Shown: positions 6,601-55,669 of the stretch, one piece after another
Numbering within the stretch: position 1 is the stretch's first letter
Layout of the letters: the number at the start of each line of letters is the position of its first letter
DNA from: Thermodesulfovibrionales bacterium
Lineage (GTDB): Bacteria > Nitrospirota > Thermodesulfovibrionia > Thermodesulfovibrionales > SM23-35
DNA: 64,000 nucleotides
Assembly: GCA_041658585.1 (NCBI GenBank)
Contig: JBAZZX010000005.1
Location: 17,226 to 81,225, forward strand
Direction of reading: 5' to 3'
Program-made: the position numbers and the translations under genes
Notes under the pieces: model-generated
What the model saw: the letters and a program-made list of their open reading frames with translations, nothing else
Told to the model about the DNA's origin: nothing
The model's database searches: none

Positions 6601-8050
6601 CACGATTGCCTCAGACCTTGCTGGTCTACAGACAACCGACACAAGGACAATCAATTTTGATCCGACTGCTCCCTATATCGAAATAACAACACCTGCTGAC
6701 AATAGCAAGACGAAGCAATCAACGATTGAAGTCTCAGGCACTGTTGATGAAAGCTCTATGGTTACTGTAAAAGTTAACGATTACGATCCTTTGCCTGCTC
6801 AAATGAATGGTAATAACTTTACTTTAACTGTTCCATTGACATATGGAATTAATACCATAGAAGTTATTGCAACAGACCTTGCAGGTAACAATTCGTCATT
6901 GAAGAGGACGGTGACCTATGACGACCACAGCCCCGCACTATCGATTACTGAGCCGAGTCAGGATGGTAAGACAAATCAGAGTAGTATGCTGATCAAAGGA
7001 ACTGTAAGCGATATTACGACAACCACTGTAAAAGTGACTCAGGATCAAGAAGCATTTACTCCGGCTGTAACAAACGGCTCATTTGAACAACTTATCACCT
7101 TTACAATAGAAAAGACGTATCAGATCTATGTGACGGCAACCGATGAGCTGGGTAACGAGACAACCGTCCAGAGGAACATCATCTATGATACAACTCCACC
7201 TTCTCTCTCCATAGATGCTGTCACAAGCCCTACGAATCAGAATAGCCAGGTATTGACCGGAACAGTGGAGGCAACGGCAGAAGTGACCGTTTTCTGCCCG
7301 ACAGCAGATGTAGGCCCAGTTGATTACCCAACACAGACTACGTGGTCAGTGGCGTTGACCAATATGGCTGAAGGTAATAATTTGATAACTGTTACGGCTG
7401 CTGATGAAGCCGGGAATGTATCTGGCCAAATGGGAGCAATTATAGTCGTTGACACTGTTGCTCCTGATACCGCGATTACCAGTGCACCCAGCAATCCATC
7501 AAATTCAACTTCTGCAAGTTTTGGCTTCTCATCGACAGACAATAATTCAACCTTCCGGTGTCAAATAGACAATGGGGGATATCAGCCGTGTACCAGCCCT
7601 AAGGCCTATACAAACCTTTCTGTGGGCAGTCATACATTCTATGTTGGGGCAACGGATGCCGCAGGAAATACTGAACCATTTCCGGCAAGCTACACGTGGA
7701 CAATAACTCAAGCCCAGATGCCTGATTTGTCAGGGAAGTGGCTTTCACTTATGTCGAGATTAAGAGGAAGACATATCACTGGAACTCTGCAGGTGACTAA
7801 CGCAGGAAATGTTAATGCAAGAAAATTTAATGTAACATTCTATCTTTCTAACGATGGCATAAATACATCTCGTGTTCTTAGAATAGTTTCTGTTGGTAGT
7901 CTGAAGGCAGGTAGGTCAACAAATCTTTCCTTCACGTATAATTCTTTGACATCTCTTTCCCATAAGTATATCATCGCTGTGATTGACTCAGGTAACCAGA
8001 TTGCTGAAACAAATGAAAATAATAACATGGCAGTATCGAGAATACCTTAG
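3656..8050 (+). CDS. giant secreted multidomain surface/adhesin-like protein (PKD, beta-helix, FN3, InlB-B-like, Ig-like x>=5, CARDB-like)
   Basis: 1464 aa.
- Signal-like segment LLGAFLFLFCFIPLNLYA/DV.
- PKD-like YEWSFGDG...THAY..GFYTVHL.
- Parallel beta-helix style repeats (NCTI.., SSPVISGCSI.., NNNWGHPSGP).
- FN3-like LSGTASYNSVYLTWN.
- Two LTVTKSGTGSGNV...TLTA...FTGW modules.
- Repeated Ig-like units with D(L/E)AGN motifs.
- C-terminal CARDB-like NAGN...YLSNDG.
The true start may be the TTG about 33 nt downstream (SD AGGGGGGAG). Confidence 0.85.
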   Translation: MHPASCKGGSVLGVRKQASFYRSSRSNFWCKSLHSPFSSLLGAFLFLFCFIPLNLYADVPDAVIVDNSIWNGAVVGQVNWYQKHDTYLEAEVTVSNPKFFWTKLLIQNPHDVSIDPESLYANFGFLGPVSSTIPWEPGFATAKYNLRFDNETTINIGVDPTLNSGPEASFFNLAQIVLTAAPVPADALSLTTLSDMLEYIENTQELADIADTIFVQGNIISGTKSLVELALFQPEVLQPIYVKAGLQLGLDDIKAALSLWKMLDIIRQVSDQAYTYIFGNPSGYIIFKAVSLQVGDDDPYIIASFSANPQSAAPNLTIQFNASQSTAYKDTITSYEWSFGDGASDTTSSPIVTHAYSAKGFYTVHLTIHSSGGRSDSSQLTVSVGNAHLDGVIFNGGTLSTDTTWTAAEGHHLVKGSFNIPEGVTLTIEPGVKVELGGGVEINVQGTLTATGVTFTWADGGNEWTGIRFRDTGASGSRLENCTIEHANGAHPYASDEPPHTGVIYIWNASPTIINCTIGNSSALAGVWMRNSSSPVISGCSISGFTNSSHGYGILVDYGSVWGHSMPTVTGSMLSNNRYGIFIYSHSDGGMYRGNTISGNTSFGLYYSGSMVLDATNNNWGHPSGPLDSSDDRLSGGLYNPTGLGDKVSDHVNYYPWTGMTIGQTAIPTSLSGTASYNSVYLTWNANTEPYIGGYKIYYGTSSNNYNKSKIVGIVTSDTLTGLSNGTTYYIAISSLNSVGVESPKSAEITVTPKATFALSVTKSGNGSVSATGLACNGDICSGTYSYNTQVVITATPGEGSIVAWTGCNSTNGNQCTVTMNIDKNVTVTFSYTEYLLTVTKSGTGSGNVTDDKGKLTCNGNTCSGSYAVNTQVTLTAEADAGSAFTGWTSLCNGTGTCTITMDGAKGVTASFSDTEAPDLTISALSDGSWTNNETLNISGTATDNMGIESLTLTINGTPVILNPDGTFSHALTLIVGPNEINTIASDLAGLQTTDTRTINFDPTAPYIEITTPADNSKTKQSTIEVSGTVDESSMVTVKVNDYDPLPAQMNGNNFTLTVPLTYGINTIEVIATDLAGNNSSLKRTVTYDDHSPALSITEPSQDGKTNQSSMLIKGTVSDITTTTVKVTQDQEAFTPAVTNGSFEQLITFTIEKTYQIYVTATDELGNETTVQRNIIYDTTPPSLSIDAVTSPTNQNSQVLTGTVEATAEVTVFCPTADVGPVDYPTQTTWSVALTNMAEGNNLITVTAADEAGNVSGQMGAIIVVDTVAPDTAITSAPSNPSNSTSASFGFSSTDNNSTFRCQIDNGGYQPCTSPKAYTNLSVGSHTFYVGATDAAGNTEPFPASYTWTITQAQMPDLSGKWLSLMSRLRGRHITGTLQVTNAGNVNARKFNVTFYLSNDGINTSRVLRIVSVGSLKAGRSTNLSFTYNSLTSLSHKYIIAVIDSGNQIAETNENNNMAVSRIP

Positions 8051-17185: not shown

Positions 17186-17278
17186 TTTAAACCCTCCTTA
17201 TTGAATACGTAAGTATAAATCATACCATAAAATATAGTTATAAAATCAACCTCTATTTGAAGCCGGGTATGCATATCC

Positions 17279-17767
17279 CTAAATCTCCGCATCAACGCTC
17301 AAAAGCCAGTGACGTGCCGGGGTTTCCCGAATCTGTTGCAGTGCCTTCTCTGAAACCCAGTGCGAGTCCTCTTCCAGATTATAGAAATAGGTGTCGATTC
17401 CGAAGAATCCGTCAAGAAAATGGGTGATGACATGGAGCATCTTTGTCCTGAAGCCCTGGGGCATTTCCGACAAGTCATGCAGCGTGCTCACCCCTTCTTT
17501 CCCTAATTCTTCCATCAGTTTATTGACAATCCTCCGGTTTTCCAGTATCGCCTTGTTCAGCCTCTCTTCAAAATCCGGACTTGTAGCCGGAAGCGAAGTA
17601 TTTTCCGCTATGGTTATATGAGAGTACCTGACCAATTGATAACGTTCAAAAAATAGAAGGACCTTTTTTCTGGAAAACGCGAAATCCTCACCTTTTACAA
17701 GGAACTCATGAAGATAATGCGACTTTCCAAGATCGTCCTGCCTTGACAATATATCCTGATAGGGCAT
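17279..17767 (-). CDS. hypothetical protein (162 aa)
   Basis: Clean ORF with no family recognised. It borders the accessory region. Confidence 0.55.
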   Translation of the reverse strand: MPYQDILSRQDDLGKSHYLHEFLVKGEDFAFSRKKVLLFFERYQLVRYSHITIAENTSLPATSPDFEERLNKAILENRRIVNKLMEELGKEGVSTLHDLSEMPQGFRTKMLHVITHFLDGFFGIDTYFYNLEEDSHWVSEKALQQIRETPARHWLLSVDAEI

Positions 17768-17854
17768 ATTTATTACCTTTCCCCCGGTATTTCAAATACA
17801 TTATCAATAATCCCCTTTTTTTTCAAGAAAGAATCAGAATTATGTCAATAAAAC

Positions 17855-17965
17855 CTATTTGTCGAGAGGGCTTCTGACGCCGAGGATATTTTTTGTTGCC
17901 ACATGGGTGTAGATCATCGTGGTCTGGAGATTCTGATGACCAAGCAGCTCGTTGACATGTATAAT
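17855..17965 (-). pseudogene. 3'-terminal remnant of an IntI-type tyrosine recombinase
   Basis: The minus-strand frame reads (TAA) [36 protein letters not shown]. This covers the box II region with the catalytic Tyr, plus the GVRSPLD tail as in IntI1 (...YTHVLKVGGAGVRSPLD...). Nothing upstream of it is recombinase-like. Confidence 0.6.
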
Positions 17966-17980
17966 TTATCCTTATATAAT
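17952..17980 (+). promoter_or_regulatory. perfect consensus sigma-70 promoter (TTGACA-N17-TATAAT) facing the TM-HTH gene
   Basis: Read directly: ttgaca tgtataatttatcctta tataat. It lies at the truncation point of the recombinase remnant, on the opposite strand. Confidence 0.65.
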
Positions 17981-18047
17981 GCTTACAATAACAGAATAAG
18001 CATAAAAATAAATGTTCGGTCATCAGACATGATCAGAAAGCTATAGC

Positions 18048-19118
18048 ATGATGTTCATCACACGACTCATAACGGAATTCGGCGAGTACCACTACACGCC
18101 TGACTACGTGCGTGGCGTTCTCGTCGAAATAACCGGGATTCTGATCGAGGTGCTCCTTCTCTCCATTGCGGTGCCCGTCATTTTCTATTTTGTCCGTCGA
18201 GTACGAACGAGGCCCATTCGGGCAATGGTGGATTTCTATCTTTTTCAGATATTTCACAAGGTCACACGTATGTTTCTTCGAATGGCATCAATCAGCGATC
18301 TCATGCCGATTATAGCAGAAGAGCAGAAACACAATCCGAAGTTCGAGATTTACAGCCACTTTGTCTACGGCAATCTCGAGAACATCCTGTTTGTCCTCAA
18401 GAGAACCTTTGCCAAAGGCGATACGTTTCGCACGGAGGTTGACAAGCGATCTATTGATGACTTCAAGGAGTTCCGGACCATCTCAGACCGCTGTCTTGAG
18501 GAAATCGATCGACTTGCGGCGATGCTTGTCGGAGTCCCGGACATCCAACAGGAACTCTTCCAGATGAGGATACTCGTTTATCCTCTTCGCGACCTATATG
18601 ATGAGGTTATCACGGATATCAAGGACTCAGAGAAGGAGCCGTTTCGCCGGAACCTCCATTCCTATGACGTCCAACAACAGGCTGAGCAACTCACCACAAT
18701 CATCGACTCAATCTTCACCAAGCGCCGAAAATTGATCGACTCGATGATGAAGCATCAGCAGTGGCGTTCGTACGCGCAGCTCTTTCTGTCCATTGTTCGG
18801 CGTTGGGCGCAGATACGGATATGCCGCTTCAGGAGAAGGCCCTATCGCGATTTCATCGCCCCGTCCCCGGTGCCTGACATGCTTCAAGAGTGGCGTGAAA
18901 GGGATCAAATGAGCCGAGAGCAAGCCGCTCAGACACTCGGGATTCCTGTTAGGGAGTACAGTGATTACGAGAACGGTTACAGGCAACCGGCAATGCACCT
19001 GTGGGAGAAGGTCAAGCCGTATCTTCGGAAGGCAAACGATGTCATTAAAGAGAAGCAAAGGACCGAACAATCAACTCCACCCTATTCGGAGAACCACGGC
19101 GGTTCTCCTCAAGGGTGA
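18048..19118 (+). CDS. membrane-anchored protein with C-terminal XRE-type HTH
   Basis: 356 aa. One hydrophobic helix (VLVEITGILIEVLLLSIAVPVIFYF), a long helical middle region, and a C-terminal MSREQAAQTLGIPVREYSDYENGYRQP HTH_3-like motif. No family recognised for the N-terminal 270 aa. Confidence 0.75.
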   Translation: MMFITRLITEFGEYHYTPDYVRGVLVEITGILIEVLLLSIAVPVIFYFVRRVRTRPIRAMVDFYLFQIFHKVTRMFLRMASISDLMPIIAEEQKHNPKFEIYSHFVYGNLENILFVLKRTFAKGDTFRTEVDKRSIDDFKEFRTISDRCLEEIDRLAAMLVGVPDIQQELFQMRILVYPLRDLYDEVITDIKDSEKEPFRRNLHSYDVQQQAEQLTTIIDSIFTKRRKLIDSMMKHQQWRSYAQLFLSIVRRWAQIRICRFRRRPYRDFIAPSPVPDMLQEWRERDQMSREQAAQTLGIPVREYSDYENGYRQPAMHLWEKVKPYLRKANDVIKEKQRTEQSTPPYSENHGGSPQG

Positions 19119-19180
19119 GTTGACGCGTTGGGCAGCGGTAGAGTGCGTTGGATATTTTTATATTTTATAAGGAGGCTGTC

Positions 19181-19621
19181 ATGAAGAAAACAATCACAAT
19201 AGTCAGTATTACCTTCTTGTCACTTTTCTCGGGATGTGCCCATCTAGATTTCGGAGATGAGGGACTTACCTATTATGATCCAAAGCCGTACTTGTTTGTG
19301 TCGACTACAAGAGATTGTGTGACTACTGCTGTGGTGCTGGTAGTACCTGAACAGAAGAAGGCGGTGAAATTTATATCAGGATATGGAACCGCCGACCTAT
19401 CAGTAGGCCTAAACAACGGAATGATTACTTCTGCTGGACAGAAGACCGACACAAAAATACCGGAAACAATCGGTGCAATTACTAGTATAGGAACGGCAAT
19501 GGCCGGTTTGAAGTTAAAGGAGCCGGGAAAGGGTTGCCCTCCTACAGCTGTACTCTATCCGATTGTATCTGGCGAGCCAGACAAAAAAAATCCAATCCCG
19601 TTTGACGTCCAAACGGAATAG
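19181..19621 (+). CDS. hypothetical lipoprotein
   Basis: Start moved to the ATG at 19181 behind AAGGAGG. Signal peptide MKKTITIVSITFLSLFSGC with a lipobox-like cysteine. No family recognised. Confidence 0.7.
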   Translation: MKKTITIVSITFLSLFSGCAHLDFGDEGLTYYDPKPYLFVSTTRDCVTTAVVLVVPEQKKAVKFISGYGTADLSVGLNNGMITSAGQKTDTKIPETIGAITSIGTAMAGLKLKEPGKGCPPTAVLYPIVSGEPDKKNPIPFDVQTE

Positions 19622-19665
19622 ATCAAAGTTGGCGACGGGGACGTTGAGGACGTTGTGAATCTTTA

Positions 19666-20747
19666 GGGACGTTGTTACTTAAGTTGCATAACTATTGACA
19701 AAGGCACAATTGAACAATAAAATACTGCCATGCCGCGACAAGCCAGATTGGATATGCCGGGAGCGTTGCACCACATAATGGTGCGGGGGATAAACAAGGA
19801 GTCCGTTTTCATTGACAAGGAGGACAAAGAACAACTACTTCAACGGCTTGGGATAAATCTTGTTGATGGGCAAGGTTTTGTATATGCCTGGGTAGTCATG
19901 GACAATCATCTGCATCTTCTTATCAAGAGCGGAAAACGAGGCATATCCGATATAATGCGAAAACTTCTGACGTGGTATGCCCAGTATTATAACCGTCTCC
20001 ATCGGCGGAGAGGACATCTTTTCGAGAACCGCTATAAATCCATACTGTGTGAAGAAGAGACATACCTTCTTGCCTTAATCCGCTATATTCACCTTAATCC
20101 GGTGCGAGCTGGGATAGTCGGAACCATGGAAGAATTAGATGAGTATTTATGGAGCGGCCACAGTGCGGTAATGAGAAATGTCAGTCGGTCATGGATGGAC
20201 ATCGATTATGTGCTTGCTCAGTTTGGGAGAAAGAAGAGGGCCGCCGGGAATGCATACAGGAAATTTATAGAAGAAGGCATGACAATAGGGCGAAAACCCG
20301 AGCTTACGGGAGGTGGACTTGGCAGGAGTGGCGGAGGCTGGTCGGAGGTGGTAGCCAGGAGAAGGAAAGGTCAGAAAGAAGAATTCGATGAGCGGATACT
20401 CGGCGGCGGGAATTTTGTGCAGGAGGTACTGCAGGAAGCGGAAGACAGACAGATAAGGCAACTGAAGATACAGCGACGAGGAATAACGATAGGGTCAATA
20501 ATAGACGAAGAATGCACAAAAGCAGGAATCAGCGAAAATGAGGTGAAGGCGGGCAGCCGCAGGGGGCCGGTGAGCAGACTCCGGGCAAGAATAGCATACC
20601 GGAGCAGGGATGAACTTGGATTATCGGCGGCGGAAATAGCCCGTCACATGGGCATGGCAACATCGAGTATTACGAGAGCTATCGATAGAGAGCATCATAC
20701 ATCATAGCGGCGGATAATAATAACGCAATTTCAGTAACAACGTCCCC
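19666..20747 (+). mobile_element. RAYT/IS200-like unit: Y1 transposase gene bracketed by 14-bp inverted repeats
   Basis: GGGACGTTGTTACT at 19666-19679 and its exact reverse complement within 20733-20747. Two further GGACGTTG copies lie in tandem just upstream (19638-19658). Confidence 0.65.
19730..20707 (+). CDS. REP-associated/IS200-like Y1 (HUH) transposase with C-terminal DnaA-C-like HTH
   Basis: GALHHIMVRGINK..., HUH motif MDNHLHLLIK, catalytic-Tyr region ALIRYIHLNPVRAGIV. The C-terminal segment ...LSAAEIARHMGMATSSITRAIDR is helix-turn-helix-like. Confidence 0.85.
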   Translation: MPRQARLDMPGALHHIMVRGINKESVFIDKEDKEQLLQRLGINLVDGQGFVYAWVVMDNHLHLLIKSGKRGISDIMRKLLTWYAQYYNRLHRRRGHLFENRYKSILCEEETYLLALIRYIHLNPVRAGIVGTMEELDEYLWSGHSAVMRNVSRSWMDIDYVLAQFGRKKRAAGNAYRKFIEEGMTIGRKPELTGGGLGRSGGGWSEVVARRRKGQKEEFDERILGGGNFVQEVLQEAEDRQIRQLKIQRRGITIGSIIDEECTKAGISENEVKAGSRRGPVSRLRARIAYRSRDELGLSAAEIARHMGMATSSITRAIDREHHTS

Positions 20748-20791
20748 AAAGAATCCTACACAAGGAAGAATCAGAATTATGTCAATAAAAC

Positions 20792-20902
20792 CTATTTGTC
20801 GAGAGGGCTTCTGACGCCGAGGATATTTTTTGTTGCCACATGGGTGTAGATCATCGTGGTCTGCAGATTCTGATGATCAAGCAGCTCGTTGACATGTATA
20901 AT
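20792..20902 (-). pseudogene. second copy of the IntI-type recombinase 3' remnant
   Basis: Same frame and same truncation point as 17855-17965. Two substitutions fall in the remnant (ctgGag>ctgCag, gatgaCc>gatgaTc on the + strand). Confidence 0.6.
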
Positions 20903-20917
20903 TTATCCTTATATAAT
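20889..20917 (+). promoter_or_regulatory. second copy of the TTGACA-N17-TATAAT promoter, facing brnT-brnA
   Basis: Identical hexamers and spacer. brnT starts 69 nt downstream behind AAGAGGAG. Confidence 0.65.
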
Positions 20918-20985
20918 GCTTGCAATAACAGAATAAGCATAAAAATAGATGTTATGTGTAAAATGAAAATAAAGAGGAGTAGCTT

Positions 20986-21285
20986 ATGCGATATTATTTC
21001 GACTGGCATCCTGAGAAAGCGAAGACAAATAGAAAAAAACATAATATCAGTTTTGAGCAAGCAGCCGGTATATTTCTCGATCCCAGAGCTATAACTGTGT
21101 TTGATGATGAACATAGTGAAAATGAAGACCGTTGGGTTACAATAGGAATAGATAAAAGCGGTATCCTATTGGTTATGGTACATACTTTTAATCAAATAGA
21201 CAGCGAATGTTGCAGAATTCATATTATTTCTGCTCGAAAAGCAACCAAAAAGGAAGCAAAACATTATCGGGAGGAAAATAAATGA
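20986..21285 (+). CDS. brnT: BrnT-family (DUF497) toxin
   Basis: FDWHPEKAKTNRKKHNISFEQAAGIF...RIHIISARKATKKE matches the BrnT/DUF497 pattern. Confidence 0.85.
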   Translation: MRYYFDWHPEKAKTNRKKHNISFEQAAGIFLDPRAITVFDDEHSENEDRWVTIGIDKSGILLVMVHTFNQIDSECCRIHIISARKATKKEAKHYREENK

Positions 21286-21485
21286 AAAAAGAATACGATT
21301 TTTCCAAGGGTGAGAGGGGGAAGTTTTATAGACCGGATGCAGAATTGTATCTACCTATATACATCGAGCCTGACATGATGGAAGTGCTAAGTAAATTTTC
21401 AAAGAAAAAAGGCGTCGAGATTGCAACGATAGTAAATGAGTGGATAAAAAAAGACATATCCATAGTAGAAACAATAACAAAATAA
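21282..21485 (+). CDS. brnA: BrnA-type antitoxin
   Basis: 4-nt overlap with brnT. N-terminal EYDFSKGERGKFY and a C-terminal RHH-like segment are typical of BrnT partners. Confidence 0.75.
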   Translation: MKKEYDFSKGERGKFYRPDAELYLPIYIEPDMMEVLSKFSKKKGVEIATIVNEWIKKDISIVETITK

Positions 21486-21486
21486 C

Positions 21487-21552
21487 ACATAACCAATCAC
21501 TCCACAGGATGCGGCGAAACTAACGCCGCACCTGTGAGTTCTATCGTTAGCT
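21487..21552 (+). other. attC-like bulged hairpin after brnA
   Basis: Starts 2 nt after the stop codon. ACATAAC (6/7 to RYYYAAC), a 9-nt unpaired spacer, a 13-bp stem 21503-21516/21524-21536 with one bulged A, a 9-nt spacer, then GTTAGCT (6/7 to GTTRRRY). No T-tract follows, so it is not a classical terminator. Confidence 0.45.
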
Positions 21553-21809: not shown

Positions 21810-22010
21810 ATGAGCAAAATACAAAATATCGAAAGAGAAGTCCAAGGCCTAAATCCTGATGAACTTCAGGCTTTTAGAAAATGGTTCTGGGATTTCGACG
21901 CGCAAAAATGGGATCGGCAGTTTGAAAAAGATGCTTTATCTGGAAAGCTCGATTCACTGGCCGAGACAGCCATCAAAGCGTTTAAGTCCGGTCACTGCTC
22001 CGAAATTTGA
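21810..22010 (+). CDS. small antitoxin-like protein (partner type of RelE/ParE toxins)
   Basis: 66 aa with LNPDELQAFRKWFWDFDAQKWDRQFEKDALSGKLDSLAE. By recollection this family sits upstream of RelE/ParE-type toxins. A toxin stub follows with an overlapping start. Confidence 0.55.
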   Translation: MSKIQNIEREVQGLNPDELQAFRKWFWDFDAQKWDRQFEKDALSGKLDSLAETAIKAFKSGHCSEI

Positions 22011-22102
22011 AGCATTTTGCCTCGCCGGAGTTTTGGGGACTCTATAGGGCACTGCCGCAGTCTGTTCAAGACCTTGCAGGTAGAAATTTTGCATTAAATG
22101 AA
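22007..22102 (+). pseudogene. RelE/ParE-family toxin stub (first ~32 codons only)
   Basis: The TTG-initiated frame reads LKHFASPEFWGLYRALPQSVQDLAGRNFALNE, the N-terminal helix pair of this toxin family. Similarity ends at a GC-rich hairpin (ccccgccgcaagcagcgggg) and the rest is unrelated. Confidence 0.5.
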
Positions 22103-22314
22103 CTACCCCGCCGCAAGCAGCGGGGAATTGAACCCAAAGAGATTAAAGGAATTGGGATACTTAGAATCGCATCGCAATGAAATAATGGAACAATGAGGAC
22201 GGCGACTGTATGCATTTACGAATTTATTTGTTGAGGAGCAACGCCAATGTCAAATTGAATGATGCCAAAAGTACCTCATGTTACGTTATAATGATTTGTA
22301 TAAGGAGGCAAATT

Positions 22315-22527
22315 ATGAATGCAGAATATACGGCAGCAATAAAGCAATCAGGTGATTGGTGGATTGGATGGATAGAGGAAATTCCGGGCGTAAACTGTCA
22401 AGAAGGAACGTATGACGAACTGCTTGAAAGCCTTCGGCTAACCCTGAAAGAGGCACTTGACTTTAACCGAAGGGACGCTATCGCCGCTGTAGGTTCAGGA
22501 TATAAAGAAGAAAAAATCGCGGTATGA
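22315..22527 (+). CDS. hicB: HicB-family antitoxin (short UPF0150 type)
   Basis: Start at the ATG at 22315 behind AAGGAGG. GDWWIGWIEEIPGVNCQEGTYDELLESLRLTLKEAL. Confidence 0.8.
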   Translation: MNAEYTAAIKQSGDWWIGWIEEIPGVNCQEGTYDELLESLRLTLKEALDFNRRDAIAAVGSGYKEEKIAV

Positions 22528-22712
22528 AGCGCAGTGAACTGCTGAAGTAACTGCGGTCACAAAGATGTGAATTTATCAGAGAAGGTAGCCGCCATTCATG
22601 GTGGTGGAACCCCAGCCAAAACAAACGATCGTCTATTCCAAGACATACTGAAATCGACGATAATCTTGTTCGAAAAATTTGTAAAGACCTCGGAATAGAA
22701 CAAATAAAATGA
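22524..22712 (+). pseudogene. hicA: hicA toxin gene inactivated by a nonsense codon
   Basis: ATGA overlap with hicB. The frame reads MKRSELLK*LRSQRCEFIREGSRHSWWWNPSQNKRSSIPRHTEIDDNLVRKICKDLGI, which is HicA-like throughout. A TAA sits at codon 9 (22548-22550). Confidence 0.8.
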
Positions 22713-22713
22713 G

Positions 22714-22804
22714 CCTTAACACCGCCTTCAACCCAGACGCGGAATAAGCATAGTTTCTTTTTCGCGAAGGTGTTTGCCCGCGCCGCTGATTTACTACGTT
22801 ATCT
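22714..22804 (+). other. attC-like bulged hairpin after hicA
   Basis: Starts 2 nt after the stop codon with CCTTAAC. AACACC/GGTGTT and TTC/GAA stems are separated by a 3-nt bulge, then GCG(G)AA/TTCGC. Possible 3' boxes are GTTTGCC (22772) or GTTATCT (22798). Confidence 0.35.
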
Positions 22805-22890
22805 GTCAAAATAACTAAAGGACACTTGATAAATACATACGATTAATGCATACTAATGCATATAGAATATATTGATGGAAGGGGAATTTT

Positions 22891-23088
22891 ATGAGGACCA
22901 CACTCAACATTGAAGACAGATTACTTGACAAGGCAGCAAAGTTGACTGGTATTAAGGAAAAAACTTCCCTTGTCAGACTTGGGCTTGAAGCACTCATAGC
23001 AAAAGAAAGCAGTAAGAGACTCGCAAACCTCGGAGGAACAGAGAAGAAATTAAATATGGTCCCTCGCAGAAGATCAGCAGGCGCGTAA
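22891..23088 (+). CDS. vapB: VapB-type antitoxin
   Basis: MRTTLNIEDRLLDKAAKLTG...SLVRLGLEALI pattern. Immediately precedes a PIN toxin. Confidence 0.8.
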   Translation: MRTTLNIEDRLLDKAAKLTGIKEKTSLVRLGLEALIAKESSKRLANLGGTEKKLNMVPRRRSAGA

Positions 23089-23089
23089 A

Positions 23090-23446
23090 ATGGTTCTTGT
23101 TGACACCTCGGTGTGGGTTGAACATCTTCGATCCGGCAACGTCGGACTTGAAAATCTATTAAATGAAGGCCATGTTGTTTGTCATCTGTTCATAGTTGGG
23201 GAACTCGCTTGTGGCAACCTCTCAAACAGGTCTGCAATCCTTTCTCTCTTGCAAGCCCTCCCTTTGGTGAACCATGCAGAACATGAAGAAGTGATGCATT
23301 TTATAGAGAATTATTCACTTATGGGAAAAGGGTTAGGGTACATCGATATGCATCTGATTGTTTCGGCTCTATTGACGAAAGTTTCAATTTGGACACTCGA
23401 TAAGAAACTCAAAGAGGTTTCTTCAAAGCTGGGGTTAGAGTACTGA
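23090..23446 (+). CDS. vapC: VapC PIN-domain toxin
   Basis: VLVDTSVWVEHLR ... GYIDMHLIVSAL acidic PIN residues, 118 aa. Confidence 0.9.
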   Translation: MVLVDTSVWVEHLRSGNVGLENLLNEGHVVCHLFIVGELACGNLSNRSAILSLLQALPLVNHAEHEEVMHFIENYSLMGKGLGYIDMHLIVSALLTKVSIWTLDKKLKEVSSKLGLEY

Positions 23447-55594: not shown

Positions 55595-55669
55595 TGGAGC
55601 CGGTGGGGAGAGTCGAACTCCCGGCCAGCTGATTACGAATCAGCTGCTCTGCCTCTGAGCTACACCGGC
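55595..55669 (-). tRNA. tRNA-Thr (anticodon CGU), CCA encoded
   Basis: The reverse complement GCCGGTGTAGCTCAGAGGCAGAGCAGCTGATTCGTAATCAGCTGGCCGGGAGTTCGACTCTCCCCACCGGCTCCA folds as a cloverleaf: 7-bp acceptor stem, GCTC/GAGC D stem, GCTGA/TCAGC anticodon stem with loop TTCGTAA, GGGAG/CTCCC T stem. Confidence 0.93.

Follow-up and report, generated by a model that had tools for sequence, protein, structure and literature searches.

A 2.9-kb segment between two copies of a brnTA promoter region in a Thermodesulfovibrionales genome: probably a mosaic islet of a membrane-anchored HTH gene, an orphan lipoprotein gene and a TIRYT element

The stretch of DNA analysed here, called the window, comprises 64,000 nt of contig JBAZZX010000005.1 (positions 17,226 to 81,225, forward strand) in the Thermodesulfovibrionales bacterium assembly GCA_041658585.1, and this study concerns a 2.9-kb segment of it that lies between two plus-strand direct repeats of 193 nt each, R1 at 17824-18016 and R2 at 20761-20953. 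The repeats have a start-to-start spacing of 2937 nt and are 97% identical, with five mismatches, at 17828, 17927, 17940, 17985 and 18011. Their diagnostic sub-strings are present in only two copies within the window, where none would be expected by chance. Three plus-strand genes are enclosed, coding for a membrane protein of 356 amino acids (aa) with a helix-turn-helix (HTH) domain (18048-19118), a lipoprotein of 146 aa (19181-19621) and a Y1 transposase (19730-20707), and a unique segment enclosed in this way by long direct repeats has the layout of a translocatable or excisable module. Both repeats contain the promoter TTGACA-17-TATAAT, a sigma-70-type sequence that matches the consensus in 12 of 12 positions, at 17952-17980 in R1 and 20889-20917 in R2, and the copy in R1 precedes the HTH and lipoprotein genes. 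The segment is probably not a functional system but a mosaic accessory islet of three independent pieces: a solitary membrane-anchored XRE gene from a rare family, a solitary orphan lipoprotein gene from a widespread one, and a self-contained transposase unit.

The HTH protein consists of a short N-terminal tail, a transmembrane (TM) helix, a helical domain of ~220 aa that is predicted to be cytoplasmic, and a C-terminal HTH of the XRE type. It has one strong hydrophobic segment, at residues ~24-49, and a single TM peak is seen in 16 of the 16 homologues of the full-length family alignment, with Glu34 and Pro43 nearly invariant in the helix. The flanks of the helix have net charges of -1 on the N-side and +4 on the C-side, and therefore, by the positive-inside rule, the protein is predicted to be oriented N-out/C-in, which leaves only ~23 residues on the outer side of the membrane. 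The most conserved block of the family follows directly after the TM helix, RTRPIR..DFYLFQIFHKITRMFL, and further motifs are SHxVYGNLEN, C..EIDRL, YPLRD and KRRKLIDS. Pfam HTH_3 covers residues 279-321 (E 6e-7, 29.8 bits against a cutoff of 23, so that the gathering score is passed), and it was matched in 14 of the 16 family members. The AF2 model is entirely helical, with a mean pLDDT of 82; the TM helix runs on into a long cytoplasmic helix (18-79), and a second long helix (205-262) leads to the HTH. Residues ~275-330 of the model superpose on ImmR, DdrO, SinR, HipB and C.BclI with a root mean square deviation of 1-2 Å over ~52 residues, as would be expected of a five-helix fold like that of lambda repressor.

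No known family was recognised outside the HTH. Residues 1-270 gave no family match in Pfam, NCBIfam, PADLOC, PHROGs, the PDB or BFVD, and when Pfam was run on all aligned members of the family it matched the XRE HTH alone. The same was true for Foldseek against the PDB and BFVD (ImmR, DdrO, SinR, HipB, HigA2 and C-proteins) and for a profile search of PDB sequences, where the best match was ImmR 7t8i with an E value of 5e-5; RstR matches the HTH domain with 2e-6. PADLOC-DB 2.0 matched the protein via its HTH only (RmrA at 7.9e-5, HTH_VI, CapH) and so assigns it to no defence system, and a full-text literature search on membrane-anchored XRE proteins in defence islands gave nothing relevant. 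The protein is 100% identical to one from a Thermodesulfovibrionales metagenome-assembled genome (MAG). A word-indexed search found ~20 homologues. In a profile search the cluster representatives numbered 47 at E values below 1e-30 and 84 below 1e-10, where the weaker matches include proteins with similarity to the HTH alone, and at E <= 1e-3 there were 430 hits. No homologue was present among 50,697 phage and 72,556 plasmid records. Some members are HTH-free, ~250-290 aa long (e.g. P0145, P0149, P0151 and P0154, ~265-285 aa), and others of ~390-435 aa (P0174, P0182, P0185, P0176) have a degenerate HTH and a C-terminal extension of ~70 aa, with no Pfam domain in any HTH-free or extended variant. 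Since such variants exist, the N-terminal module is the core of the family. It is this N-terminal domain family that is the remaining novelty of the locus, and the evidence on its role is contextual.

The lipoprotein gene begins 62 nt after the stop codon of the HTH gene, with AAGGAGG 6 nt before its ATG. Its product has the signal peptide and lipobox of a bacterial lipoprotein, MKKTITIVSITFLSLFSG directly before Cys19 (LFSG-C19), and is predicted to be lipidated. Gly18, Cys19 and Ala20 are invariant in 21 homologues, and so are Cys46 and Cys119; because of these two cysteines the sequence suggests that the protein is disulfide-bonded and periplasmic. Pfam, NCBIfam, PADLOC and PHROGs gave no family match for it, Pfam gave none for any aligned member either, and profile searches of PDB sequences were likewise negative. 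The AF2 model is poor (pLDDT 63) and Foldseek returned no fold match, a search that is uninformative with such a model. At least 240 homologues with 50-75% identity occur in several phyla, with hosts in the Desulfobacterota, Nitrospirota, Gamma- and Alphaproteobacteria and Acidobacteriota, and more distant ones in Bacteroidota and Planctomycetota, and a pattern scan found the family in only 38 of 185,579 species-representative genomes. It is a strongly conserved, sporadically distributed orphan family. There were no homologues in the phage records, and on plasmids there was one distant copy, adjoining an integrase on a Pseudomonas plasmid. On a contig of an Afipia MAG (L033) a BrnT-like open reading frame (ORF; ~6890-7140, minus strand) lies ~0.9 kb downstream of a lipoprotein homologue, a second case of lipoprotein and BrnT genes near each other that is probably coincidental.

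The third gene belongs to a described type of element. Y1 HUH transposases that are flanked by terminal inverted repeats (TIRs) are known as TIRYT, or TnpA_REP subclass 2.1, and they have a C-terminal Bac_DnaA_C, HTH_23 or HTH_28 domain and the TIR consensus GGGG[AT][CG]A[CG] (Quentin et al. 2018, PMC6006769). The Y1 protein in the window has 325 aa and matches Pfam Y1_Tnp with an E value of 5e-10, it has an HUH motif (HLH) at residue 60 and a catalytic tyrosine, Tyr119 (YIHLNP at 119), as a TIRYT should, and its residues 256-320 match HTH_23 (2.9e-5) and Bac_DnaA_C (8.9e-4), below the gathering score but in the expected position and of the expected kind. The unit (19636-20755, plus strand) has its own promoter at 19695-19723 and 40-nt TIRs at 19657-19696 and 20716-20755, which are 83% complementary, and the right TIR stops 5 nt before R2. 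As the Y1_Tnp domain with HUH and tyrosine, the C-terminal HTH and the 40-nt TIRs fit the architecture in PMC6006769, the third gene is a TIRYT, a known and self-contained element type. It differs from the description in its TIR core, GGGGACGT, which agrees with the published consensus in 6 of 8 positions, and in its score against the NCBIfam equivalog REP_Tyr_transpos (NF047646), 66.6 against a cutoff of 80. All four copies of GGACGTTG in the window lie at the TIRYT ends, with three direct copies on the left (19639, 19648 and 19667, plus strand) and one inverted copy on the right (20738, minus strand), and these are candidate binding sites for the DnaA_C-like HTH of the element. No REP-like repeats of the TIR core were found elsewhere in the window, and the element shows no sign of moving neighbouring genes.

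A relic TIR to the left of R1, which would tie the duplication of the repeat to the TIRYT, was looked for and rejected, as the alignment score was not above background; an equal score was reached in 12% of random windows for the window sequence and in 1.5% for L008, a metagenome contig of a near-identical strain. L008 also contains a second, different TIRYT, coding for 277 aa, with 24-nt TIRs that are 96% complementary and a core, GGGGTCAG, that matches the published consensus in 8 of 8 positions. The L008 copy of the Y1 gene is degraded: homology to the window stops at 20246, there is an internal deletion, and a short remnant of 20564-20587 is left. Taken together, this part of L008 (2459-3918) has the look of nested or clustered TIRYT insertions.

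A sequence-only reading of this DNA had described the segment much as above, and its observations hold: the two 193-bp direct repeats with an offset of 2937 nt, a 356-aa protein with one N-terminal TM helix and a C-terminal XRE HTH, a 146-aa lipoprotein behind AAGGAGG, a Y1 transposase unit as third gene (to which the TIRs can now be added), the consensus promoter directly in front of the pair, and a location in an island rich in toxin-antitoxin (TA) genes, where both brnTA and vapBC are present. It had also called both proteins unassignable, and the profile searches and structure prediction that it proposed indeed gave nothing beyond the XRE HTH. What found no support is its suggestion that the HTH protein and the lipoprotein form a two-gene function in envelope sensing, exclusion or defence, for which it had proposed co-occurrence of the two genes in other genomes as a check and had named a lack of it as evidence to the contrary.

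To look at co-occurrence, 13 other HTH-family loci (L001, L002, L009-L015, L054/55, L056, L058 and L059) and 44 lipoprotein loci (L003-L007 and L016-L053, ~40 of them non-redundant) were examined, and tblastn was run with both proteins against 10 HTH-family loci and the 44 lipoprotein loci. The lipoprotein was found in none of the 13 HTH-family loci and the HTH protein in none of the ~40 non-redundant lipoprotein loci, and the contexts of the HTH-family members P0007, P0019, P0002 and P0017 also lack the lipoprotein. The only other place where the two stand together is L008. All-against-all BLAST clustering of the neighbouring ORFs, at 1e-8 and again at 1e-3, gave no conserved partner for either gene; the most recurrent neighbour family appears in at most 3-4 of the ~40 lipoprotein loci, and none recurs among the HTH loci. 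The genes are thus not a conserved pair: they do not co-occur in the unrelated genomes sampled, they have no conserved neighbours, and their family sizes are very different. The looser theme of an HTH-family gene beside any lipoprotein was also rejected, as it is represented only by L056, where an unrelated lipoprotein lies three genes away.

The homologues of the HTH protein often sit in defence or mobile-element islands. Their contexts include a MjaI-type restriction-modification pair with DUF3644 and a YjiV-type helicase; HEPN, RES, FRG and DUF6650 genes; Mrr_cat and AAA_15/21 genes; integrase, resolvase, methyltransferase and excisionase-like HTH genes; a Trypco2 gene; and an HNH gene with an integrase fragment. 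There are ordinary contexts too, a MacB-type transporter with a sigma-54 activator and a porin with an ion channel. In L013 (5953-7542) a homologue reads through into a Phage_integrase fragment as one ORF of 529 aa; whether this is a fused gene or a neighbour with a frameshift, the context is that of a mobile element. The lipoprotein gene has highly variable neighbours elsewhere, among them an HNH nuclease, a caspase (Peptidase_C14), an S53 peptidase and several small multi-TM proteins. A system built from the upstream neighbours of the lipoprotein was considered and rejected, these being too heterogeneous.

Directly downstream of R2 is a cassette of brnT (20986-21285; Pfam E 2e-25) and a brnA-like antitoxin gene (21282-21485), together 20986-21485 on the plus strand. 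Cassettes with 98-100% identity to it are found in three other contigs with different flanks, L060 (466-1026, adjoining an HD_4/TGS gene of the RelA/SpoT-like kind), L061 (119-791) and L062 (1-609), and their homology begins at window positions 20878, 20886 and 20932, that is, inside R2. For this reason the repeat's right ~76 nt are counted as part of the brnTA cassette, and R2 is the resident brnTA promoter region; the left ~100 nt continue the backbone by a gene for a 162-aa protein (17279-17767, minus strand), which is transcribed divergently from the repeat and has no family match in Pfam or NCBIfam. Far from being anonymous DNA, the repeat is accordingly the control region that separates the 162-aa gene from brnTA. 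As this 193-nt region stands on both sides of the islet, the HTH and lipoprotein genes are driven by a captured, slightly diverged copy of the brnTA promoter. The cassette with its promoter (20878-21550) itself looks mobile. R1 also holds a perfect inverted repeat with 7-nt arms, ATGCTTA-N11-TAAGCAT (17979-18003), which overlaps both the -10 hexamer and the site where transcription should start; the R2 counterpart (20916-20940) has one mismatch (20922 G). The inverted repeat may be a candidate operator, on weak evidence. Rfam gave no RNA families in or near the repeats, its sole match in the window being a tRNA gene at 55598-55669 (minus strand).

A comparison with L008 revealed a step in identity. 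Over the 621 nt of 17274-17894 the two sequences differ 43 times (93.1% identity), and the L008 orthologue of the 162-aa protein is 91% identical as protein and 94% as DNA, whereas over the 2352 nt of 17895-20246 they differ only 3 times (99.87%). The step lies inside R1 (Fisher p ~1e-26). In a three-way alignment of the right part (~90 nt of R1, the brnTA-type promoter allele) R1 equals L008 and R2 differs at four sites, while the left, backbone-type parts of R1 and R2 are the same except for position 17828, and either copy has nine or ten differences from L008. The R2-type allele is carried by L061 and L062. Since the identity step falls inside the repeat, the islet appears to have been exchanged recently between strains, with the boundary within the repeat. 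The proposal of the sequence-only reading that the segment behaves as a translocatable unit is thereby supported in part and indirectly, as far as recombination-mediated mobility goes, but the step does not demonstrate excision. The same reading had judged the pair GC-rich by eye, and this applies to the HTH gene (50.6%, and 62% at third codon positions) but not to the lipoprotein gene (44.7%, against 45.3% for the window); the backbone genes have ~47% and brnTA ~35%.

To the left, the segment is preceded by leuS, lptE, holA, rpsT and then the 162-aa gene. To the right, brnT and the brnA-like gene are followed by vapBC and a DNA alkylation repair gene. The vapBC genes at 22891-23446 are a clear VapB/VapC (PIN) pair in the same TA island as brnTA. 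The part of the island at 21810-23446 also has small ORFs of 66, 57 and 105 aa with no Pfam match, and the 105-aa ORF resembles HicB when judged by eye.

Several observations weigh against a mosaic of unrelated pieces. The HTH-lipoprotein pair is intact and almost invariant in two strains, and its 62-nt spacer has a strong ribosome-binding site and only a weak terminator-like hairpin (a 5-pair stem, 19133-19150), which as sequence features suggest that the two genes are co-transcribed; because of the retention in two strains and these spacer features, a functional coupling specific to the lineage is conceivable. The loci sampled for co-occurrence number in the tens. Roughly one in two of the inspected lipoprotein genes has a gene for a small, unrelated membrane protein directly upstream, and these upstream proteins could hint at a loose theme of membrane protein plus lipoprotein. 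L008, furthermore, shares the left junction but is rearranged on its right side, where a second TIRYT and then a 1155-aa exported protein follow beyond 20246, and it has no second repeat within 5 kb. Empty site, deletion allele and circular form were likewise not seen, in unitig graphs that collapse the repeat: the look-ups, made with the exact BrnT, 162-aa and HTH proteins, returned short repeat-collapsing unitigs or brnTA cassettes in unrelated contexts.

Other explanations for the segment were considered. That a membrane-tethered HTH protein and a lipoprotein would constitute a two-gene system, the lipoprotein signalling to the regulator, is suggested by two adjacent genes on one strand behind one shared consensus promoter, by the fact that neither product could be assigned, by the TA island and by the 99.9% conservation of the pair in the sister strain. 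It is nevertheless very unlikely, as the partners are absent from each other's loci in the 13 HTH-family and ~40 lipoprotein loci examined, the families differ greatly in size and distribution, PADLOC gives nothing past a generic HTH, and the ~23 residues predicted to lie outside the membrane offer a periplasmic partner little to meet. The repeat-bounded structure could also be thought of as an assembly artefact, a chimeric join or a falsely duplicated repeat, given that the source is a MAG and that L008 diverges in the middle of the Y1 gene and lacks a second repeat. But the copies differ at five positions and the flanks on all four sides, Logan unitigs from two independent runs (L064 and L065) reproduce the left junction of R1 (17768-17858), as does a JGI assembly, and unitig L063 (SRR8449812) is identical at 100% to 17955-20795, including the junction of TIRYT and R2. 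L063, L064 and L065 break exactly 30 nt (k-1) from the copy-specific variants, as expected for a genuine two-copy repeat, and an artefact is therefore scarcely credible.

An explanation closer to the mosaic islet, and a refinement of it, is that the HTH protein alone makes up a single-gene conflict system, acting in abortive infection or defence or serving a mobile element as its immunity repressor, with a membrane-acting N-terminal module and an autoregulatory XRE HTH, and with the lipoprotein and the TIRYT as bystanders. The solitary homologues beside restriction-modification, HEPN/RES/FRG, Mrr_cat/AAA, integrase/resolvase, Trypco2 and HNH genes would fit this, and so would the TA island around the gene, the nearly invariant Glu and Pro in the TM helix, and the HTH-free variants that make the N-terminal module the family core. 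We consider it unlikely, although less so than the other two, as some of the homologue contexts are ordinary, the phage and plasmid records contain no homologue, no PADLOC model was matched outside the HTH, and guilt by association from ~13 loci is weak. A more far-reaching version, in which the N-terminal TM-helical module represents a new family of solitary, island-borne conflict membrane proteins and the lipoprotein might independently be a surface-exclusion factor, is rather doubtful; if it were true, candidate roles of the module would be single-gene abortive infection or exclusion, or the sensing of the state of the membrane.

For the mosaic islet, the preferred explanation, the following picture can be drawn. 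The islet sits in the divergent control region between a backbone gene and the brnTA cassette, and its HTH and lipoprotein genes might come under any control to which the brnTA promoter is subject. The identity step suggests a recent acquisition or exchange of the islet by homologous recombination, with the crossover located in the repeat, and the flanking repeats would permit its loss or duplication in a RecA-dependent manner. For the HTH protein the most likely role is that of a one-component regulator which is tethered to the membrane and works by itself, and because the predicted N-out/C-in topology puts the helical domain and the HTH in the cytoplasm, its signal would be read in the membrane or the cytoplasm and not in the periplasm. 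Such a regulator role is compatible with a function in conflict or defence. The lipoprotein would then be an unrelated periplasmic accessory protein.

The individual parts resemble known systems to different degrees. Proteins of the ToxR/CadC type have an N-terminal DNA-binding domain, a central TM helix and a C-terminal periplasmic domain, and RodZ has an N-terminal XRE HTH. The HTH protein resembles them in that a single chain has both a DNA-binding domain and one membrane anchor, but the order is inverted, with the TM helix at 24-49 and the HTH at 279-321, a periplasmic sensor domain is missing from the predicted topology, and the helical domain of 220 aa has no detectable relative, so that it does not belong to their type. 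A C-terminal HTH is also found in the antitoxins MqsA and HigA2, and the best matches of the HTH domain are the mobile-element and phage repressors ImmR and RstR together with HigA2, HipB and C-proteins. This similarity is limited to ~50 residues, whereas the N-terminal part of the HTH protein is a membrane-anchored domain, and, unlike the antitoxin genes, the HTH gene has no adjacent cognate toxin gene.

Modules bounded by direct repeats, such as translocatable units of the IS26 type and amplifiable units, integrate and excise by homologous recombination. The segment is like them in being a unique sequence between two long direct repeats with an exchange boundary inside the repeat, but here the repeats are a promoter region and not insertion sequences, and the sole transposase, the TIRYT, is bounded by ends of its own, which do not delimit the repeats. 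With the BrnT/BrnA type II TA cassette the segment has only the promoter in common, in the form of the right part of the repeat. Neither the HTH gene nor the lipoprotein gene has homology to brnTA; they merely use a copy of its promoter.

What looked like a system of a membrane HTH protein and a lipoprotein thus resolves into a known TIRYT and two uncharacterised families, which are best studied separately. The locus is an example of how the promoter region of a toxin-antitoxin cassette, once duplicated, can serve to express newly acquired cargo, and of how a step in strain-to-strain identity can locate the limit of an exchange within a repeat. Of the three parts, only the HTH family has real potential for discovery, being rare and often island-borne, with a conserved acidic residue in its TM helix and with HTH-free variants.

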